A stretch of DNA of 64,000 nt, from the IMG/VR virus record IMGVR_UViG_3300045988_137643, positions 1 through 64,000 of that record; one strand, written 5' to 3'. Of this stretch, positions 4,978-12,867 are shown in pieces. The notes under the pieces were generated by a model. It worked only from the letters and a program-made list of their open reading frames with translations, was not told the origin of the DNA and searched no databases. A program made the position numbers and the translations under genes. Positions within the stretch are counted from its first letter, which is position 1. The number at the start of each line of letters is the position of its first letter. This DNA comes from a virus. Taxonomy: Duplodnaviria > Heunggongvirae > Uroviricota > Caudoviricetes.

Positions 4978-5460
4978 ATGAATTTTATCGCTACTGTAAA
5001 CGCACCCGCACATGGCAATATCGCTGTAACGTTCTCTGACATTGAAAAACGAGTACTTGGTGCATGGCGCGACAATGAGACGGTAGAACTGTCAGCACAA
5101 GAAAAATGCATTATTGCACGCGACATCATTGGCAATCGTCGTTACTCGCGGGTATTTGAGAAAGCGTATGTGGTAAATTCTGGATTCGGAACGTTCGTCT
5201 TTCCGGTGCGCTCCGGGCGATTCTGCCAGTCCAAGCTGATTGAGTTCGCTACGCAGATTTCGGTCTGGATTAAAACTCAATCGTCGTTCAAATTTTCCGA
5301 CGATGAAGCAGTATCGCAGGGGATGCGGATCGCCAACAATGCAATTAAATGCAAAAACATTACGTATACCGCTGGCGTTGATACATGGAAACTGTTTTGC
5401 GCTAACTTTATGTTGAATGTATACGCAAGCAACCGCATCCACATCCTTGATGGCGTGTAA
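4978..5460 (+). CDS. hypothetical protein
   Basis: ORF track; AAGGA RBS; operator palindrome 4944-4958 upstream; terminator 5468-5492 downstream. Confidence 0.55.
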   Translation: MNFIATVNAPAHGNIAVTFSDIEKRVLGAWRDNETVELSAQEKCIIARDIIGNRRYSRVFEKAYVVNSGFGTFVFPVRSGRFCQSKLIEFATQISVWIKTQSSFKFSDDEAVSQGMRIANNAIKCKNITYTAGVDTWKLFCANFMLNVYASNRIHILDGV

Positions 5461-5492: not shown

Positions 5493-5507
5493 ATAGCCAC
5501 CAGCTGC

Positions 5508-5597
5508 CGCAGGGAAATTTTCAGAAACGGCGAGGAACGCATTCATGAGCCGACGGGAAACGGCCAGGATTTTTTCGGGAAACGGCTGCATTCGCCT
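5508..5597. repeat. second array of GGGAAACGG-type repeats
   Basis: CAGGGAAATTTTCAGAAACGGCG, CGGGAAACGGCCAGG, CGGGAAACGGCTGCAT; shares GGGAAA-GGCTGCAT with first array. Confidence 0.55.
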
Positions 5598-5997
5598 TTA
5601 TGTAGAAAAAACATCGGGAAGCTGGTGGAATCCAACCAGCGGTTGTCGGACAGGTGAGCGGGGAAAATTATGATGACTTTCGTCGCCTGAGACATCCAGA
5701 TTTCTTTCGTAGCATAATCACATACGTGATTAAGTGGTGTGATTATGTGAAAAATCACGCGCACATAATACGCGAGCGGATACGGAACAAAACGAAATGC
5801 CGATCCGCGCCGACAAATAAACGCGGATCATAAAGCAAGACTAAAAGCCAATGATTAACCATACTCTATAACGCAATATAACGCGTTTTAAGCGCGTTAA
5901 TGTGTTAAGTAATGGGTATGTACTGGTAAGGATATAAAAGCGCGTCTATGGCGTTATTTTGGTGCTTATTTTTATGTTGTTGGAGTGAGTTAAAGAC

Positions 5998-6026
5998 AAT
6001 AAAAAACGCGCCAATGATGGCGCGTT
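5998..6026 (-). terminator. minus-strand rho-independent-type terminator
   Basis: AACGCGCCA-ATGA-TGGCGCGTT; A-run on + strand gives U-run after the hairpin on minus strand. Confidence 0.6.
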
Positions 6027-6046
6027 ATGGTGGGAGTATTGGAAAC

Positions 6047-6071
6047 GAAAAAAGCGCCCATAGTGGGCGCT
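6047..6071 (-). terminator. minus-strand rho-independent-type terminator after 6077..6304
   Basis: AGCGCCCA-TAG-TGGGCGCT with U6 on the minus strand; hairpin sequence repeated at 6546-6566. Confidence 0.7.
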
Positions 6072-6076
6072 CGATT

Positions 6077-6304
6077 TTATTTATGTAAACTGATTTCAAA
6101 TCCCATTTCTACAAACACTTTTAACATTAAAAATATATCAGCGTCGTTCACGTCTGCTTTTTTTCGCTCCTGGTCGCTCAATAAGTCAATTTTGCGCGTC
6201 GTTTCATCTATAAGCTCAACAGATCCAGCGTAACCAGCGATCCCAGCAATATCATTAACACAATATTCATTGTGGACGTTAACGCCAGCGATAAGAACAA
6301 ACAT
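6077..6304 (-). CDS. hypothetical protein
   Basis: ORF track; AAGGAG RBS on minus strand; followed by tandem minus-strand terminators. Confidence 0.5.
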   Translation of the reverse strand: MFVLIAGVNVHNEYCVNDIAGIAGYAGSVELIDETTRKIDLLSDQERKKADVNDADIFLMLKVFVEMGFEISLHK

Positions 6305-6324
6305 GATTAAGCTCCTTAAAAAAA

Positions 6325-6528
6325 TTAAATAGAATTTTGAAGTTTTCCGATTAATGCGCTTAAACGTAAGTATTCACGTTTGCGCTTGCAATCTCGCTTG
6401 CTGTTAAGCAAATCAGAAAACGTAAAATTTAATTGGTCGCGTTGCGCGATCAAATCATCGATTAATTCCAGTTTATAAGCGCGATACTTTGCGCGATATT
6501 CCGCGCGGATCTTGTCATAGCTGACCAT
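6325..6528 (-). CDS. hypothetical protein
   Basis: ORF track 6325..6573 shortened to internal ATG 6528, which has an AAGGAG RBS; the first 15 codons of the track ORF are a hairpin also found at 6053-6071. Confidence 0.45.
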   Translation of the reverse strand: MVSYDKIRAEYRAKYRAYKLELIDDLIAQRDQLNFTFSDLLNSKRDCKRKREYLRLSALIGKLQNSI

Positions 6529-6576
6529 TTTTAAAGCTCCTTTAAAGCGCCCATAGTGGGCGCTTGATTCCATTAA

Positions 6577-7227
6577 TTACGCTTTGAAAGCATCAGCTAA
6601 ATAATTGTAGAAATCATTTTTAATGAAGCGATATTGCTGAGTACCAGCTTTTGCGCTCCCAGCTCCTTTGACTTTCTCAACAAGTCCGAGACGTTCGCAA
6701 AGATTGATCAACTGGTTGGCTTGAGTATAGCCAGCGTCCAATTTAATTTCGCACGCTTTTTTAGCTTCATTCATTAAATCGAAAACAGCGCCATTAGTGA
6801 ACGTGTCGATCTCGTCGTTAATCATATCGATTAAAGCGAATACACGAGATCCTGACATATCAGCGACGGAATAAACGCATTTACCAGCTTTAATGGATTT
6901 AACCAGATAAACCAGTTTTTCCAGTGAATAACTATTAGTCATAGCATCACGGAAAAATACTTCTGGCGCTTGTTTGCTTGCTTTAATCGCATAGTAGAAA
7001 ACAGAGCATAATTTTTCGTCTTCTACTGCGTTTACGACGTTGTTGATGAAGTAAGCAAGTTTAGTGGTCGCAGCTTGCATATTTGCTTTGTCTGCTTTAG
7101 TGTGCGTACCATTTTTATAATGTTCGTTATATGTTTGAGTTGCCAGATCTGCTTTTTCGCGCAGTTCATCGGATACAATGGAAGCAGCTTCAATGATGGA
7201 TTTTTTAGAAATGATAATGTTAGCCAT
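6577..7227 (-). CDS. hypothetical protein
   Basis: ORF track, 216 aa; AGGA RBS. Confidence 0.55.
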   Translation of the reverse strand: MANIIISKKSIIEAASIVSDELREKADLATQTYNEHYKNGTHTKADKANMQAATTKLAYFINNVVNAVEDEKLCSVFYYAIKASKQAPEVFFRDAMTNSYSLEKLVYLVKSIKAGKCVYSVADMSGSRVFALIDMINDEIDTFTNGAVFDLMNEAKKACEIKLDAGYTQANQLINLCERLGLVEKVKGAGSAKAGTQQYRFIKNDFYNYLADAFKA

Positions 7228-7465
7228 GATAATTTTTCCTTATGTAAATTTAAAATTTATTGTCGTTAGCGTCTTCGCTTTCGACGAGTTCAATTATCGA
7301 TACGCGAAAAAAGATTGCAAGTGTTTTTTTAAAATTTTTTGCAGGGATGAAAGTCCTAGAAATAAAAGCGAGATCGTCGAAGGTGTTCCCTAAATAAATA
7401 ATCGATTCCGGCTTTCGATCTTATATATATTTAGGTTATTTGATTTATAGATATAAAGAAGTGAT

Positions 7466-7498
7466 GTGAAAAATAATAACCGGACTTAGCCGGTTATT
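7466..7498 (-). terminator. minus-strand rho-independent-type terminator after 7511..7819
   Basis: AATAACCGG-ACTTAG-CCGGTTATT 9-bp stem; U-rich tract on minus strand. Confidence 0.65.
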
Positions 7499-7510
7499 AA
7501 CCTTATAGAT

Positions 7511-7819
7511 TTATTGAACAGACTCTACAGCCTTACGATTGGTGTCAAATAGCGCATCAACGAACTGTGCCGATGACTCGCTAGATTCGCAATCCAACAT
7601 TGCCCGTTCTTCATTTGCCACTTTCTTACACAGTTCCACATTCTCACCTATCGCTTTTCCTGCTTTTACGGCTGCCGAAAATTGATACATGCAAACTGAT
7701 ACATTCTGAGACGTTGAGCACACGTCATTCATCAGCGACTGAATGACAGGCTTATAGTCCATTGCATTTGCCGCAACTGAGCAAAGTAAAAATAATGGTG
7801 GTAACAATATCGATTTCAT
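7511..7819 (-). CDS. secreted small Cys-containing protein
   Basis: N-terminal signal peptide MKSILLPPLFLLCSVAANA with AxA cleavage site; minus-strand terminator directly downstream. Confidence 0.55.
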   Translation of the reverse strand: MKSILLPPLFLLCSVAANAMDYKPVIQSLMNDVCSTSQNVSVCMYQFSAAVKAGKAIGENVELCKKVANEERAMLDCESSESSAQFVDALFDTNRKAVESVQ

Positions 7820-7822
7820 AAC

Positions 7823-8347
7823 TCAAAAAGGCAAAATTCGCTCAACCCAATCGAACAAAACAACTATTTTTCTACCGTTCTCGACACGTAGTGTAACCTG
7901 ACAAGCATCTGCGCCTGCTGACACCCCCTCAATTTCACGGCCATCCGCCATGTACACCCTTATAGATTTGTTTGCTTTGTAGGCTTGGTTGCAAATTGCA
8001 AAAAAATCGCGGCGTGATGGCCGATTATCGACATAATCAGGGTGAACTGTTAGTCGACCTTTGAAATCGTGAGCGATACTGTCAACCACACCTGATTCAA
8101 TTGTACTAATGCGTTCAAGTGGGAGCCTTATGCGATTTTCTTTATCAAAAGGGGCTGGGCAAAGGTCAACTTTGTTACGAGATGGCATGAGGCCATAAAC
8201 GTACATGCAAAACGCCTGACCATCTTCGAGAGTGGCCCTTACAGGAATTTGTTCTCTGCGCCAGAACATCAGTAGTTTTTCAACGTTAGTGTAATCTCGA
8301 GGCCAGACTTCTGCTGGCACACCGTAGGTGATGTCTTTCGTCGTCAT
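7823..8347 (-). CDS. hypothetical protein
   Basis: ORF track 7823..8386 shortened to Met 14 (8347) to remove overlap with the upstream lipoprotein gene. Confidence 0.5.
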   Translation of the reverse strand: MTTKDITYGVPAEVWPRDYTNVEKLLMFWRREQIPVRATLEDGQAFCMYVYGLMPSRNKVDLCPAPFDKENRIRLPLERISTIESGVVDSIAHDFKGRLTVHPDYVDNRPSRRDFFAICNQAYKANKSIRVYMADGREIEGVSAGADACQVTLRVENGRKIVVLFDWVERILPF

Positions 8348-8351
8348 ATCA

Positions 8352-8771
8352 TTATAAAGTGGTTGGCAATATATCCATTGTACCATCCCAGGTAGTGAAA
8401 ACCCGATATGTTTTCGCGTCGCCTTGCTTTAGTTTTATTTCTCGCTCCATCCTGGAGGGGTTAAATGCGCAAAGACCTGAACTTTCAATTGATGTCCCAA
8501 CGATCCAATCTCCTTCATTAAGATAGAAAGTTGCTTTTTCACCAGGTTCCAATTTTGCTGCCGTTTCTCCATTGATGAATATAGAAGCGTTACATCCAGA
8601 ACCAACCAGCCCTTTGTCTCTAACTATTGTTAGACTAGACTCATGTGGTGTTTGATATTTAAATGTTCTGCTTTGAGGTGCATACTTTGCCTTTGAAACA
8701 GATATAGATGAAGATGAACACCCAATTAGTGATGTGGCTAGTGTTAGAATAATTAGGTTTGTTGCTTTCAT
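8352..8771 (-). CDS. lipoprotein
   Basis: signal peptide with lipobox LIGC (MKATNLIILTLATSLIGC). Confidence 0.6.
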   Translation of the reverse strand: MKATNLIILTLATSLIGCSSSSISVSKAKYAPQSRTFKYQTPHESSLTIVRDKGLVGSGCNASIFINGETAAKLEPGEKATFYLNEGDWIVGTSIESSGLCAFNPSRMEREIKLKQGDAKTYRVFTTWDGTMDILPTTL

Positions 8772-8798
8772 ATTTGTCTGGCTATGATTAATGGATGG

Positions 8799-9341
8799 TT
8801 ACACGTTAACTTGGGTTCTATTGTAAATATCTATTAAGAGGTCGTCCCTTTTTATATCTCCGCAGATTTTGTTGAAATTTAATTCGCCTGATATTATTCC
8901 TTCATTGTATTTTTCGATGAAATCTTTCAATGCGAGATGATTCTTAAAGAGAAACGAAAATCCATAGGACGAAGTGCTATCGTTTATCAGTTTTTGAGCA
9001 TTTGGGTAATCGTATAAGTTTGAATGCAACTCTAATTTACCTGGAGCTACGCCGACACAGGATTTCATAATGGAGAACAGTCTTGATATATCATAGGGAT
9101 AAAAGATAATACCGCAATTTGTCTTGGTACCTTCAATATCCTTTACGTATATATAGTGCTCATAACGATCTTTGCGCGAAGCCTTTAGTTTATATTTGAT
9201 GAGTTTGTGCTCTCCTTTTTGAGAAGATGTTAGGTACGCCTGCTTTTCTAAACAAGACTGCTTTGATTTACAATAGATATGAACACATTCCTTTATTCGC
9301 CTTGCACTTAAGTAATTACTATCAATGTCAAGTACACCCAT
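8799..9341 (-). CDS. hypothetical protein, first gene of A+T-rich island
   Basis: ORF track, 180 aa; visibly A+T-rich coding sequence; CRP-like site and a 16-bp palindrome in its upstream region. Confidence 0.5.
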   Translation of the reverse strand: MGVLDIDSNYLSARRIKECVHIYCKSKQSCLEKQAYLTSSQKGEHKLIKYKLKASRKDRYEHYIYVKDIEGTKTNCGIIFYPYDISRLFSIMKSCVGVAPGKLELHSNLYDYPNAQKLINDSTSSYGFSFLFKNHLALKDFIEKYNEGIISGELNFNKICGDIKRDDLLIDIYNRTQVNV

Positions 9342-9432
9342 TCACACCTCCGGCTATAAACATTGATAAGCCTACAAATATCATTCAGCCAATCAAGAAC
9401 TTTTTTCAGCCGGAGACTTATGCGGTTAAAAA

Positions 9433-9448
9433 TGTGACAAATGTCACA
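9433..9448. promoter_or_regulatory. CRP-type site TGTGA-N6-TCACA
   Basis: AAATGTGACAAATGTCACATGA matches the TGTGA-N6-TCACA core exactly; about 100 bp upstream of minus-strand start codon at 9341. Confidence 0.5.
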
Positions 9449-9524
9449 TGAGAATGCCCTGTTGGACACTATCGTAGTCTATTAATCATTCAATGTTTGT
9501 CTTGATTAAATTCATTCTCTAGGC

Positions 9525-9540
9525 CACATCAATTGATGTG
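9525..9540. promoter_or_regulatory. perfect 16-bp palindrome CACATCAATTGATGTG
   Basis: perfect inverted repeat in the 250-bp intergenic region upstream of 8799..9341. Confidence 0.45.
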
Positions 9541-9595
9541 CTCCTTTTACAAGTAAGCACATCTTGGAATTGGCGGATGGAGGGAATGCGAAATG

Positions 9596-9874
9596 TTATG
9601 GCAGTTTGCTTAGAATTTGTTCTAGGTCTTCCTTTGTCATATTAGAGTTTTCATAGATGCGCATGATTTTCTCACGAGCCTTAGCAGAGACTCCAACGGC
9701 AGAGGAAACTTTATCAAACTCAGCCATCGTCATCGCCTCTAGGATGGTATTGATAACTTCAGCCTTAGACATTTTGATGTTTTTTTCTTTTAGTTTCATT
9801 TGAAACTTTCCAAGTTTGTCATTGGCCTTATCAGACAATGCCACCTGACAATAAGTTGTTTTCTTTTCGCTCAT
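9596..9874 (-). CDS. small hypothetical protein, possibly DNA-binding
   Basis: ORF track, 92 aa, Lys-rich; immediately downstream of the helicase gene on the same strand. Confidence 0.45.
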   Translation of the reverse strand: MSEKKTTYCQVALSDKANDKLGKFQMKLKEKNIKMSKAEVINTILEAMTMAEFDKVSSAVGVSAKAREKIMRIYENSNMTKEDLEQILSKLP

Positions 9875-9876
9875 AA

Positions 9877-11436
9877 CTAATCTCGTTTCAGAACTCCAAA
9901 ATCGAATGCGCCATCAATAGGCAATACACCTTCTGCAAAGCCAGGTGTGGTGTCGATGATGTGTTTTCGCTCATAAGAGTGAGACAACAGATATTTGTTG
10001 CTAATGTCAATAAAATCAGTGATAAAACATACGTTTGCCTGATTCTTCTTGGCTCGTAAGCCACGACCGACACGCTGCCTCATTTCAACTTCTGCTTTCC
10101 CACCACCAGCAAGAATGACCGCACCAACGCTTGGCACATCAACACCGACATCCAGAATAGTCGAGCCTATTAAAACATCTATTTCTCCAGACGCTAAACT
10201 GTTCAGCTTTGCTTGCCTTGTCGCCTGGTTAGATTCCCCATAGATGAAGTCAACTCTAAGGCCGGACTCTTTCATCATTTCCATCAGGATTTGCCCGTGG
10301 CGTTTAAGGCGAACCAGAGTCATACAATTGAGAGAATGTTGCTTATAGAGCAATGCTTCGCGAACAATGGCCTCGTTACGTCCCAAATTATACACGATCC
10401 CCAACTGATAAGCCTTTTGGTAGGCAGTACTCATACCTACTCTAAAATTGAGGTGTTTGTTGGCAAGTTCTGCCTTGATTCTGGCCTCGTCTGGTTTGTA
10501 GGCAACTTTATGATAAAGGAAGTACGGCTTTGCCAGAATGCCTCGATCAATCAGGTACTTTTCTGTGACTTTAATTTCAATTCGCCCGGCCACCGCCATC
10601 AGGCGCATGTTGGCTTCCGTCGAATCCTTCATGAACGGCGTGGCTGTAAGCGCCAGACGATAGTCTGCGTTCACACATAATCTGGCGATGTCATAGAAAT
10701 TTGAGCCTGAAGACTCATGCGCCTCTTCCAGAATAAGAAGAGAGACACTTGAAAGGAAGCGTTTCACCAACTCCCGACGTTTGAGGTGGTAGCTTTTCTT
10801 ATCTGGTGTTGCATCGCGTGGTGGTTCTTCGAGGAAACTTGCAAGAGTTTGAACTGTAGCGACGTTGATATGTCGTGATACCTGGAACTCACCCGAGCCA
10901 ATGACTCCAACCTTTTGGTCTTTTAACCACGGTTCGCCATTTTCGGCGCGGTAGTCGATGGATCTCTGGAAGTTATCGGCCATCTGAAACATCAGAACAG
11001 ATCGGGTTGTTAAAAATAATGTCATTCGACCGATACGTGCAGCTGCTTTGCAGGCAACGTTAGATTTCCCGCCACCAGTAGCGATCTGCGCAATCATCAT
11101 TCCCTCGCGAACTAGTGTTTCCACAGCCTGATCCTGATACGCATAATCAGGATTGTATGGGAATGGGTTAACCGCCGGATTTGGCTTTCCAAGCGCCGGG
11201 ACTTTGTCTTTGCGGATATGAACACATTTGATGCCCGCCTTGTTCAAGTTCGCCACTACAGGCTTGGCAAAGCCAGCAGGGAACGAGTTTTTACTCCAGT
11301 TGAACATCGTGCTTGTGCCCTTCCAGTCGCCAGTCTCGACTTCGTAGCTCAACATTTGCTGCACCAGTTGCTTTACCTTGTCATCTGCGCCAGAAATAAG
11401 CGCATTAACTGCGTTAGATACAATCCGAACAGTCAT
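9877..11436 (-). CDS. superfamily-2 helicase (DEAH-type)
   Basis: motif I TGGGKS, motif II LILEEAHE, motif III TATP, motif VI QRVGRGLR; GAGG RBS. Confidence 0.75.
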   Translation of the reverse strand: MTVRIVSNAVNALISGADDKVKQLVQQMLSYEVETGDWKGTSTMFNWSKNSFPAGFAKPVVANLNKAGIKCVHIRKDKVPALGKPNPAVNPFPYNPDYAYQDQAVETLVREGMMIAQIATGGGKSNVACKAAARIGRMTLFLTTRSVLMFQMADNFQRSIDYRAENGEPWLKDQKVGVIGSGEFQVSRHINVATVQTLASFLEEPPRDATPDKKSYHLKRRELVKRFLSSVSLLILEEAHESSGSNFYDIARLCVNADYRLALTATPFMKDSTEANMRLMAVAGRIEIKVTEKYLIDRGILAKPYFLYHKVAYKPDEARIKAELANKHLNFRVGMSTAYQKAYQLGIVYNLGRNEAIVREALLYKQHSLNCMTLVRLKRHGQILMEMMKESGLRVDFIYGESNQATRQAKLNSLASGEIDVLIGSTILDVGVDVPSVGAVILAGGGKAEVEMRQRVGRGLRAKKNQANVCFITDFIDISNKYLLSHSYERKHIIDTTPGFAEGVLPIDGAFDFGVLKRD

Positions 11437-11482
11437 AAACCTCTTTCCTTAGTGCCTTTTGTATGTTATTTGGCTATTATAA

Positions 11483-11500
11483 TAAGTAAGTAGTTACTTA
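11483..11500. promoter_or_regulatory. family B palindrome TAAGTAA-GTAG-TTACTTA in divergent helicase/ParB-like intergenic region
   Basis: 7-bp arms, 4-bp spacer. Confidence 0.55.
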
Positions 11501-11518
11501 GTGGATTGTAGCAATAAA

Positions 11519-12199
11519 ATGGATGTAAAAATCACGATTTTGCAGGTTGATGTTGCCAACCTTCGCCCGAATACCTGGAACACCAATTCGGTTGGTGCGC
11601 AGAATTTTGAAAAACTGAAAGGTTCTATCGAAAAATTGGGCTTTTTTAAGCCAATTTTGGCTCGTGAACTTGAAGATGGATGTTTTGAAATCCTCGGCGG
11701 CGAACATCGCTGGCGTGCTGCTATTGAGCAAGGAATTTCAACGGTTCCGGTGCTTTCTGTGGGCAAAATTAGCGATGTCGTGGCTAAACAGATGTCACTG
11801 GTGGACAACGAGCGATACGGTGAAGACGACCAAATCGCATTGCAACGCTTCATTGAAGAAATTCAGTCAGAACTTGACTATCAACTGTCTGAAATCGCCC
11901 CGTATGACGACGAAATCTCGATGGTTTTAGCAAAAGAGGCGGCAATCGACCTTGAAGCACTGGAGGCGTTGTCTCGTGGTAGTGATGAGCCTGTCGATAC
12001 CGACAAACGAGAGAAAACCGAACGTGTGGGTGCGGAACATCAGACCATGCGCTTCAAAGTAACTTTCGATGCGTCAGATCGTGTTGCAGAAACCATAAAA
12101 AACATCATCAAAGAGCAGGCTATTAACACCGGTAATGAAATGGAGAACGCTGGTGAGGCTCTGGTGTGGCTGGTCGACTACTACAAGGAGCGTATGTAA
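11519..12199 (+). CDS. ParB N-terminal-domain (ParB/Srx fold) protein
   Basis: ParB box GGEHRWRAA; start moved to ATG 11519; palindrome 11483-11500 upstream. Confidence 0.7.
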   Translation: MDVKITILQVDVANLRPNTWNTNSVGAQNFEKLKGSIEKLGFFKPILARELEDGCFEILGGEHRWRAAIEQGISTVPVLSVGKISDVVAKQMSLVDNERYGEDDQIALQRFIEEIQSELDYQLSEIAPYDDEISMVLAKEAAIDLEALEALSRGSDEPVDTDKREKTERVGAEHQTMRFKVTFDASDRVAETIKNIIKEQAINTGNEMENAGEALVWLVDYYKERM

Positions 12200-12867
12200 T
12201 GACCAAAAAGTTTGAAATCGTATATCGCGACCCGGCAGATCTTATTCCCTATGAGATGAATGCCAAAAAGCATGATGAACAGCAGATCCGAGATCTGGCC
12301 GCAGCCATTAAAAAGCGCGGGTTTGACCAGCCAATTACGGTCGATAAGAACGACGTAATTATTACTGGCCACGGCCGCCGTGAGGCTGCAATTTTTGCTG
12401 GACTTGAGCGCGTACCGGTTATTGTTCGCGATGATCTCAGTGATGACGAGGTTCGTGCGAAGCGCCTTGAAGATAACCGACTTGCCAGCATTGATTACGA
12501 TGCAATTAAGCTACAGAAAGAGCTTGAGTCGCTTGTTCTGGACGATATCGAGGTTTTCGGCTTTGAAGAGCGTGAGTTGAATGTTCTCGTTGGCAGCATG
12601 ACAGAAGAAATGGACACCGACTCGCTAGTTATCGATCTTGGCGAAGAAACTAAACGACAGAAGGATGAACACACCGAGATCAGTCGTGAAGTTGCAGCGG
12701 AAGAAGTACGTGTTGTCGACGTATTGGGCTTTAAAACGCTCCCTGCTGGCTCTGCCATTGTTGTTGGTGATTTGCTTGCCCACATGGAAGAAATGACGGG
12801 AGAAAGCGGGGTAGACGCATTTGTGGCATATGCGGAGAAGATCTCTTCCGGGGAGATGGCTGCATGA
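12199..12867 (+). CDS. second ParB N-terminal-domain protein
   Basis: motif ITGHGRREAA; start ATG 12199 overlaps the previous stop (TAATG) with AAGGAG RBS. Confidence 0.7.
   Translation: MTKKFEIVYRDPADLIPYEMNAKKHDEQQIRDLAAAIKKRGFDQPITVDKNDVIITGHGRREAAIFAGLERVPVIVRDDLSDDEVRAKRLEDNRLASIDYDAIKLQKELESLVLDDIEVFGFEERELNVLVGSMTEEMDTDSLVIDLGEETKRQKDEHTEISREVAAEEVRVVDVLGFKTLPAGSAIVVGDLLAHMEEMTGESGVDAFVAYAEKISSGEMAA

Follow-up and report, generated by a model that had tools for sequence, protein, structure and literature searches.

FljA, the repressor of phase-1 flagellin known from the Salmonella fljBA operon and from equivalents in E. coli and S. Typhi z66, is described in a passage of PMC2652032 (citing work published in 2003 by Bonifield and Hughes and in 2006 by Yamamoto and Kutsukake) as preventing translation of fliC mRNA. 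We report here on a relative of this protein that is encoded by the third of four consecutive minus-strand genes (9341 to 7511) in the first 64,000 nucleotides of the viral record IMGVR_UViG_3300045988_137643 (Caudoviricetes), a stretch which we call the window. Megablast of positions 5500-12500 identifies it as an SSU5/pSLy3-type phage-plasmid, with about 95% identity to CMS-2020a, PhiR41_1 and Cyrano and 80% to SSU5 (all phage-plasmids of the Escherichia/SSU5 kind) and with E. albertii pEA11_2 as the nearest plasmid (98.6% identity across 7 kb). Elements of this type, among them pMT1 of Y. pestis, abound in E. coli, Klebsiella, Enterobacter and Salmonella of clinical origin; an FljA-family gene in their core, without a flagellin gene next to it, points to a post-transcriptional regulator that apparently nobody has studied.

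Other described systems offer partial parallels. Phage T4 encodes RegA, a small translational repressor that binds mRNA leaders and to which the FljA-like protein may be compared as a functional analogue only; we claim no relationship in sequence or fold. Phage morons, those of lambda type as well as Cor and T5 Llp, are likewise patchy, low-G+C cargo genes for exported proteins inserted between conserved genes. Promoters of class I that respond to the cyclic AMP receptor protein (CRP) bound to cAMP resemble the predicted promoter described below in that they combine a perfect TGTGA-N6-TCACA site with a T-rich flank, weak -10 and -35 elements and an A-tract for a possible alpha contact.

An FljA-family gene in the phage-plasmid core

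What stands at this locus is not just foreign cargo but a regulator that has received little study. The original prediction, which had taken the four genes for an A+T-rich island of envelope-targeted cargo, gave their open reading frames correctly (9341-8799, 8771-8352, 8347-7823 and 7819-7511) and listed the third as unknown; it encodes instead a protein of the FljA family. This gene (7823-8347, minus strand; 174 residues) matches Pfam PF03614 (Flag1_repress, repressor of phase-1 flagellin) with 281.3 bits against a cut-off of 24 (E 3e-84), and the match spans the whole profile, positions 1-170 of 170. Of the same family and length as FljA, the protein is colinear with it over 171 residues at 33-36% identity, as with the FljA that follows hin-like invertase and flagellin genes in an E. 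coli locus (L007; 33% over 171 residues, E 2e-33), and both proteins have the invariant motifs PSRRDFF.IC and FDWV.RI. The family is tiny: when 1.84 billion representatives were searched exhaustively with HMMER, 24 matches came back, of which three are full-length clusters (one for the phage-plasmid clade, one for a distant relative among phage-plasmids and one for Salmonella FljA). A scan of species-representative genomes gave just five loci. The identity of genuine FljA is 32-36% with the main alleles of phage-plasmids but only 24-29% with the distant ones, and the phage-plasmid clade is thus as deep as the family itself. That FljA stands closer to the main alleles than to the distant ones hints, as an aside, at a phage-plasmid origin of the phase-variation repressor.

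The setting of the gene is quite different from that of FljA. In contrast to the phase-variation repressor, it is neither co-transcribed with an alternative flagellin gene nor adjoined by an invertase or invertible promoter in any of the more than 20 loci compared, but is placed after a helicase gene in the backbone, and throughout these loci its neighbours are the helicase, a gene for 92 residues, variable cassettes and a gene for 216 residues. Within the 64-kb window we found no flagellin open reading frame and no sequence like the fliC leader above chance, and our searches of the literature gave nothing relevant that links FljA to phage-plasmids, to SSU5, pHCM2 or pMT1, or to an effect of these elements on motility. 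The order helicase, small gene, zero to three variable genes, FljA-like gene, zero or one variable gene and 216-residue gene is constant in SSU5, pMT1/pFra, pHCM2 and elements of Klebsiella, Enterobacter and Cronobacter, and it recurs in two distant relatives despite an identity of just 35-46% in their FljA-like proteins. In tblastn searches of the 72,556 plasmids of PLSDB, on which all plasmid counts given here are based, the FljA-like gene was found in 831 plasmids as against 815 for the neighbouring 216-residue backbone gene, and the counts for the latter and the former run closely together by genus (Klebsiella 346 vs 341, Yersinia 62 vs 62, Enterobacter 91 vs 92). The gene is full length in 822 of the 831 matches, has a G+C content (0.457) close to the window average and is a syntenic core gene of essentially every SSU5-type phage-plasmid. 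Conserved synteny in relatives, which the original prediction had named as an argument against its own reading, therefore holds in part, for the FljA-like gene only, while the other three genes are patchy. RefSeq annotates the gene of SSU5 at 447 nt only (L002, 2850-3296), which we regard as an annotation problem.

As for selection, the ratio of non-synonymous to synonymous substitution rates (dN/dS) of the FljA-like gene is 0.06-0.17 with saturated dS, also where copies from Klebsiella and Y. pestis are compared, and several deep alleles exist, all of them intact. Between close relatives dS is 0.08-0.14 for the helicase but 1.0-1.4 for the FljA-like gene, so that alleles are swapped by recombination. 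Diversifying selection of the kind seen in immunity genes was considered for the regulator and is weakened by the finding that the entire stretch from the 92-residue gene to the regulator is mosaic and that the 92-residue gene diverges even more between groups; the latter speaks for mosaicism of the whole slot and is no proof of diversifying selection on the regulator. Two loci, L018 of K. pneumoniae and L019 of E. cloacae, encode identical helicase and 92-residue proteins (same accession numbers) while their slot contents and FljA-like alleles differ, which shows recent spread across genera together with recombination in the slot.

An AlphaFold model of the FljA-like protein (predicted local distance difference test score, pLDDT, 81.6) has two domains, each made of a helix and five strands, in a tandem Sm/Hfq-like arrangement: the N-terminal helix followed by a bent sheet of five strands, by which we judged the fold, is seen in the model, and a Sm1-like stretch 'V/I-R-V-x-x-x-D-G' is common to both halves. 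Unlike Hfq and other Sm-like proteins the model has two such domains per chain, and by sequence the protein does not belong to the Hfq family, its match to the Pfam profile (residues 120-162) reaching 16.8 bits where the cut-off is 27. A fold search of BFVD returned only single-domain Sm-like matches, no solved structure in the PDB matched by sequence, and in the literature searched we found no report of an Sm fold for FljA. A fold of RNA-binding type would fit the block of fliC mRNA translation that the cited passage of PMC2652032 reports for FljA, and the tandem Sm-like model offers a structural idea of how FljA itself may bind mRNA. By analogy, we presume that the activity of the phage-plasmid protein is alike, namely a post-transcriptional block of mRNA.

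The promoter module, its cassettes and the terminator

Upstream of the first of the four genes lies a module of about 130 bp (9365-9495, minus strand) that alignment of this region and a pattern scan of IMG/VR recovered from 21 loci in 18 distinct sequences. On the minus strand it leads from a CRP-type operator, TGTGACATTTGTCACA (9433-9448), through a UP-like A-tract (9401-9406) to a -35 hexamer TTGATT (9391-9396), a 16-nt spacer and a -10 hexamer TAGGCT (9369-9374), and its consensus is TGTGA-N6-TCAC(A/G), followed by a T-run and CCTCCGGCTGAAAAAAG, with TTGAT(T) for the -35, 16 nt of spacer and TAGGCT for the -10. The exact core TGTGA-N6-TCACA to which the original prediction had drawn attention is borne out as the only site with one mismatch or fewer in 64 kb, where 0.09 would be expected (nine of 100 shuffled controls had at least one). 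Across all 18 variants no change is seen in the half-sites or in either hexamer, whereas the spacers of operator and promoter differ, as do the flanks, and in 17 of them the distance from operator to promoter core is fixed; a perfect CRP-type site is also present in a Klebsiella element outside the regular-expression matches. A search of the window for further copies of this site, or of the palindrome discussed below, that might serve as repeated operators found singletons only.

Immediately after the -10 hexamer the sequences part ways, and six or more unrelated leaders and genes follow. The same junction is found in L001, L003, L013, L019 and L022-L035, and in the window it falls at 9365-9375, where identity is gone within a few bases; with six or more unrelated cassettes beginning at this point, the promoter acts as a cassette junction. 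Wherever enough of a locus was covered, the module is placed between the gene for 92 residues and that for the FljA-like protein, oriented alike and 250-2230 nt upstream of the latter; in one element of Enterobacter the FljA-like gene follows it directly. We conclude from this pattern of invariant and variable positions that the module probably is a real sigma-70-type promoter with a CRP-type operator suited to binding by a dimer and, at once, a recombination junction. A sigma-70-like promoter with a CRP-type site would set the phage-plasmid operon apart from that of FljA, and in hundreds of plasmids the junction marks a concrete spot where cargo of lysogenic conversion may be sought.

Two kinds of RNA structure were seen around the module. 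Through an imperfect inverted repeat (9348-9360/9403-9415) the GGAGG of the first gene could pair with CCUCCGGCU, which belongs to the promoter region. That this stem is a conserved leader of riboswitch type that sequesters the Shine-Dalgarno sequence is not supported (z only -2.4, and AnCo3 is without the pairing), and with its left arm upstream of the predicted start and AnCo3 lacking it the pairing is probably non-functional. Many relatives have a hairpin immediately 5' of the CRP-type site (L001 at about 5040-5075 on the minus strand, L035, L013, L019), with compensatory changes (GCAGGTG/CACCTGC vs GCTGGAGC/GCTCCAGC), which the window lacks; it probably is the terminator of a gene for 187-199 residues carried there.

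The three genes that share the unit with the regulator are patchy, low-G+C cassettes, two of which encode envelope-targeted proteins. The first (8799-9341, minus strand; G+C 0.346), for a predicted cytoplasmic protein of 180 residues, is a rare cassette found in 25 plasmids; it has a GGAGG 5 nt before its ATG, belongs to PHROG 31250 (function unknown) and gave no match in Pfam, PADLOC or the PDB. The second (8352-8771, minus strand; G+C 0.390, 0.27 at third codon positions), present in 414 plasmids, encodes a lipoprotein of PHROG 890 that was rightly recognised as such by its LIGC lipobox: L-I-G-C, at residues 15-18 within MKATNLIILTLATSLIGC, conforms to the pattern [LVI][ASTVI][GAS]C, Cys18 is invariant in eight homologues, two further Cys residues are invariant too, and the protein, with Ser at +2, is one of outer-membrane type. 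Its mature form of 121 residues is predicted to be a beta-sandwich, the fold matches being generic beta-sandwiches, and searches of Pfam, PHROG, NCBIfam and PADLOC together with a fold search revealed no similarity to Cor/Llp-type or other described exclusion or defence proteins.

The last gene (7511-7819, minus strand; G+C 0.424; 259 plasmids), for 102 residues of PHROG 9536 (function unknown), had been read as one for a secreted, Cys-containing protein, and the signal peptide MKSILLPPLFLLCSVAANA and four Cys residues invariant in all homologues aligned agree with this. It is a clean indel cassette: homology with relatives that lack the gene ends at 7513 and resumes at 7825. PGAP starts it at an internal Met (83 residues; L004, 5586-5837) and so loses the signal peptide, an annotation problem; as this Met is a Lys in two homologues, the long, secreted form is the correct one. 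Relatives carry three unrelated lipoprotein families and several proteins with signal peptides in the same slot. The earlier idea of envelope-targeted cargo holds for the lipoprotein and the secreted protein but not for the FljA-like gene, a core regulator. Judged by patchy presence and deviant composition, the 180-residue, lipoprotein and 102-residue genes (G+C 0.35-0.42) resemble morons and the FljA-like gene (831 plasmids, G+C 0.457) does not. In contrast to morons, the cargo here brings no promoter or terminator of its own and uses those of the core gene, both being backbone elements common to different cassettes, and it has no homology to Cor or Llp. None of the four genes gave a match in PADLOC or NCBIfam.

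The unit ends, as the original prediction had it, at a terminator of its own (7466-7499, minus strand), a 10-bp stem (7474-7499) with a 6-nt loop followed by a T-run. This structure lies inside a block (6534-7513) common to relatives without the 102-residue gene, and the break of homology exactly at 7513/7825 marks it as conserved backbone. A separate island is thus not what we find, since the anchor is a core gene in conserved order with an average G+C content and both promoter and terminator are conserved backbone. The segment 7511-9595 is indeed A+T-rich (G+C 0.400 against 0.462 for the window; standard deviation within the window 0.029, with 6.3% of equal-sized segments as low), but the low-G+C tract stretches from about 5750 to about 10000 and takes in conserved genes, namely those for 216 residues (0.386) and 92 residues (0.380).

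What the regulator may act on

We give an even chance to the reading that the four genes make up an FljA-like operon, that is, a promoter-to-terminator unit of swappable genes for exported proteins which is anchored by a probable mRNA-binding translational repressor. Such an operon would run from the sigma-70-type promoter with its upstream CRP-type operator (about 9365-9495), where it may respond to CRP, to the terminator at 7466-7499; gaps of 3-4 nt and weak ribosome-binding sites suggest translational coupling, and the genes would be co-transcribed. Its one constant gene would supply the 174-residue FljA-family protein of two Sm/Hfq-like domains, which, going by homology to FljA and by its predicted fold, would bind the 5' leader of one or more target mRNAs and block their translation. 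The room on either side of the regulator, towards the promoter and towards the terminator, would serve as a recombination slot in which exchangeable cassettes gather, here those for the rare 180-residue cytoplasmic protein, the outer-membrane lipoprotein and the small secreted disulfide protein. The main target may be a transcript present in every host, whether it comes from the element itself or is a conserved mRNA of the host, and not flagellin mRNA alone, because the regulator is a backbone gene, is never linked to flagellin and has stayed intact in elements whose hosts are non-flagellate (341 plasmids of Klebsiella and 62 of Yersinia), a distribution which also distinguishes it from FljA. 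That the target is not flagellin-specific is, to our minds, nearly an even call, if anything a shade short of one; should flagellin not be silenced, the role of FljA would be wider and older than phase variation. One candidate, the leader of the 216-residue gene as a target that co-varies with the regulator, was rejected, for this region is 90-94% identical where the regulator allele is 67-79% identical.

Several points weigh against the operon model. The fold of the FljA-like protein is a prediction, and the sole activity of the family known from experiment is flagellin repression. The argument from non-flagellate hosts is weakened by movement of these elements between Klebsiella and motile Enterobacter (L018, L019) and, for Y. 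pestis, by the fact that this species is too young for gene decay to show. Counted from the start that the -10 predicts, the operator would be centred at about -78.5/-79.5, which is none of the positions canonical for class I (-61.5, -71.5, -82.5, -92.5), and in one relative the spacing between operator and promoter is 6 nt shorter. Moreover, SSU5, pMT1, pHCM2 and one Klebsiella type are without the promoter module, and elements of the Cyrano type have a lipoprotein gene on the opposite strand between promoter and regulator.

It is possible, though to us doubtful, that the protein does what FljA does and shuts off host flagellin via the fliC mRNA leader, in which case the operon would be a surface-remodelling unit of lysogenic conversion that silences flagellin, supplies a new outer-membrane lipoprotein and a periplasmic protein, and is co-induced with the flagellar regulon by cAMP-CRP. 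Carriage of the element would then alter motility, immune recognition and sensitivity to flagellum-dependent phages. The homology to genuine FljA over the full length with its conserved motifs and the companion genes for envelope proteins are in keeping with this, and so is the conserved CRP-type operator, given that co-induction with the target would make sense. The flhDC genes are CRP-activated, and cAMP-CRP drives the flagellar regulon. Passage between non-motile and motile genera could, on these terms, keep the gene intact, and FljA proteins just 66-67% identical act across Salmonella and E. coli (PMC2652032). The identity to FljA of only 32-36% speaks against it, however, as do the lack of any link to a flagellin gene or invertase, the place of the gene in the backbone of about 400 Klebsiella and Y. 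pestis plasmids, a promoter that is not of the flagellar sigma-28 type and a searched literature in which no motility effect of these elements is reported. S. Typhi CT18 carries pHCM2 and is still typed H:d, and this argues against constitutive repression of flagellin.

The original prediction itself, that the 2.1 kb are an acquired A+T-rich moron island under CRP control whose envelope proteins serve superinfection exclusion or lysogenic conversion and whose third gene is a passenger, draws on the lower G+C of the segment (0.400 against 0.462), the CRP-type site and terminator, the lipoprotein and the secreted protein, and the patchy presence of three of the four genes. We consider it quite improbable: the third gene belongs to the core, keeps its place in the gene order and has an average G+C content, so that synteny already refutes the whole-island reading, promoter and terminator are common to relatives with quite different cassettes, the low-G+C tract reaches over conserved flanking genes, and the lipoprotein is a generic beta-sandwich without a Cor/Llp-type or PADLOC match. 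Still further from the data, and in our view barely tenable, is the notion that the FljA-like gene is a functionless linked relic and the upstream module a recombination hotspot without promoter activity. For it, one may cite that neither a phenotype nor a target is known, but a dN/dS of 0.06-0.17 at saturated dS, 822 full-length copies among 831, several deep alleles with every one intact, and -35, -10 and operator half-sites that are invariant while the bases between them vary speak against it. Returning to the operon model, a bolder version of it would see the FljA family as a regulator that arose in phage-plasmids and chiefly serves them, a translational repressor of tandem-Sm (pseudo-Hfq) build that answers cAMP-CRP and governs either the programme of the element or a host mRNA that is conserved. 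Salmonella FljA would then be a domesticated offshoot, and the promoter would double as a landing pad through which the elements shuffle surface-protein cargo under one common control; we rate this as unlikely.

Neighbouring genes, hairpin and palindrome

The four genes belong to a minus-strand block that consists, in order, of the DEAD/DEAH helicase gene (9877-11436), the 92-residue gene, the four genes themselves and genes for 216, 82 and 75 residues, and that diverges from plus-strand structural genes and two ParB-like genes. Both backbone genes next to the unit, for 92 residues (9596-9874, minus strand; G+C 0.380) and 216 residues (6577-7227, minus strand; G+C 0.386), are without a Pfam family; the 92-residue protein has a weak PHROG match to a transcriptional-repressor family (E 5.5e-4).

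Just past the stop of the 92-residue gene an RNA hairpin, GAUGUGCUU...GAGCACAUC (9535-9563, minus strand), is predicted, the region 9500-9600 folding at -24.9 kcal/mol (z -3.2). At the corresponding position relatives form other hairpins (z -5.4 in AnCo3; GC-rich stems in pMT1 and L016), some of which are terminator-like. The 3' arm of the hairpin in the window is overlapped by the perfect 16-bp palindrome CACATCAATTGATGTG (9525-9540) on which the original prediction had remarked. The palindrome is exact as stated, but perfect 16-bp palindromes occur three times in the window where 1.0 is expected, which is chance level, and since moreover its sequence is not conserved and only the position of the hairpin is kept, it was rejected as a specific operator.

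Elsewhere in the window, a second low-G+C tract (54600-56100; 0.34-0.39) holds a minus-strand open reading frame of 298 residues (55181-56077), without a Pfam match, that adjoins a tyrosine recombinase gene (56710-57813).

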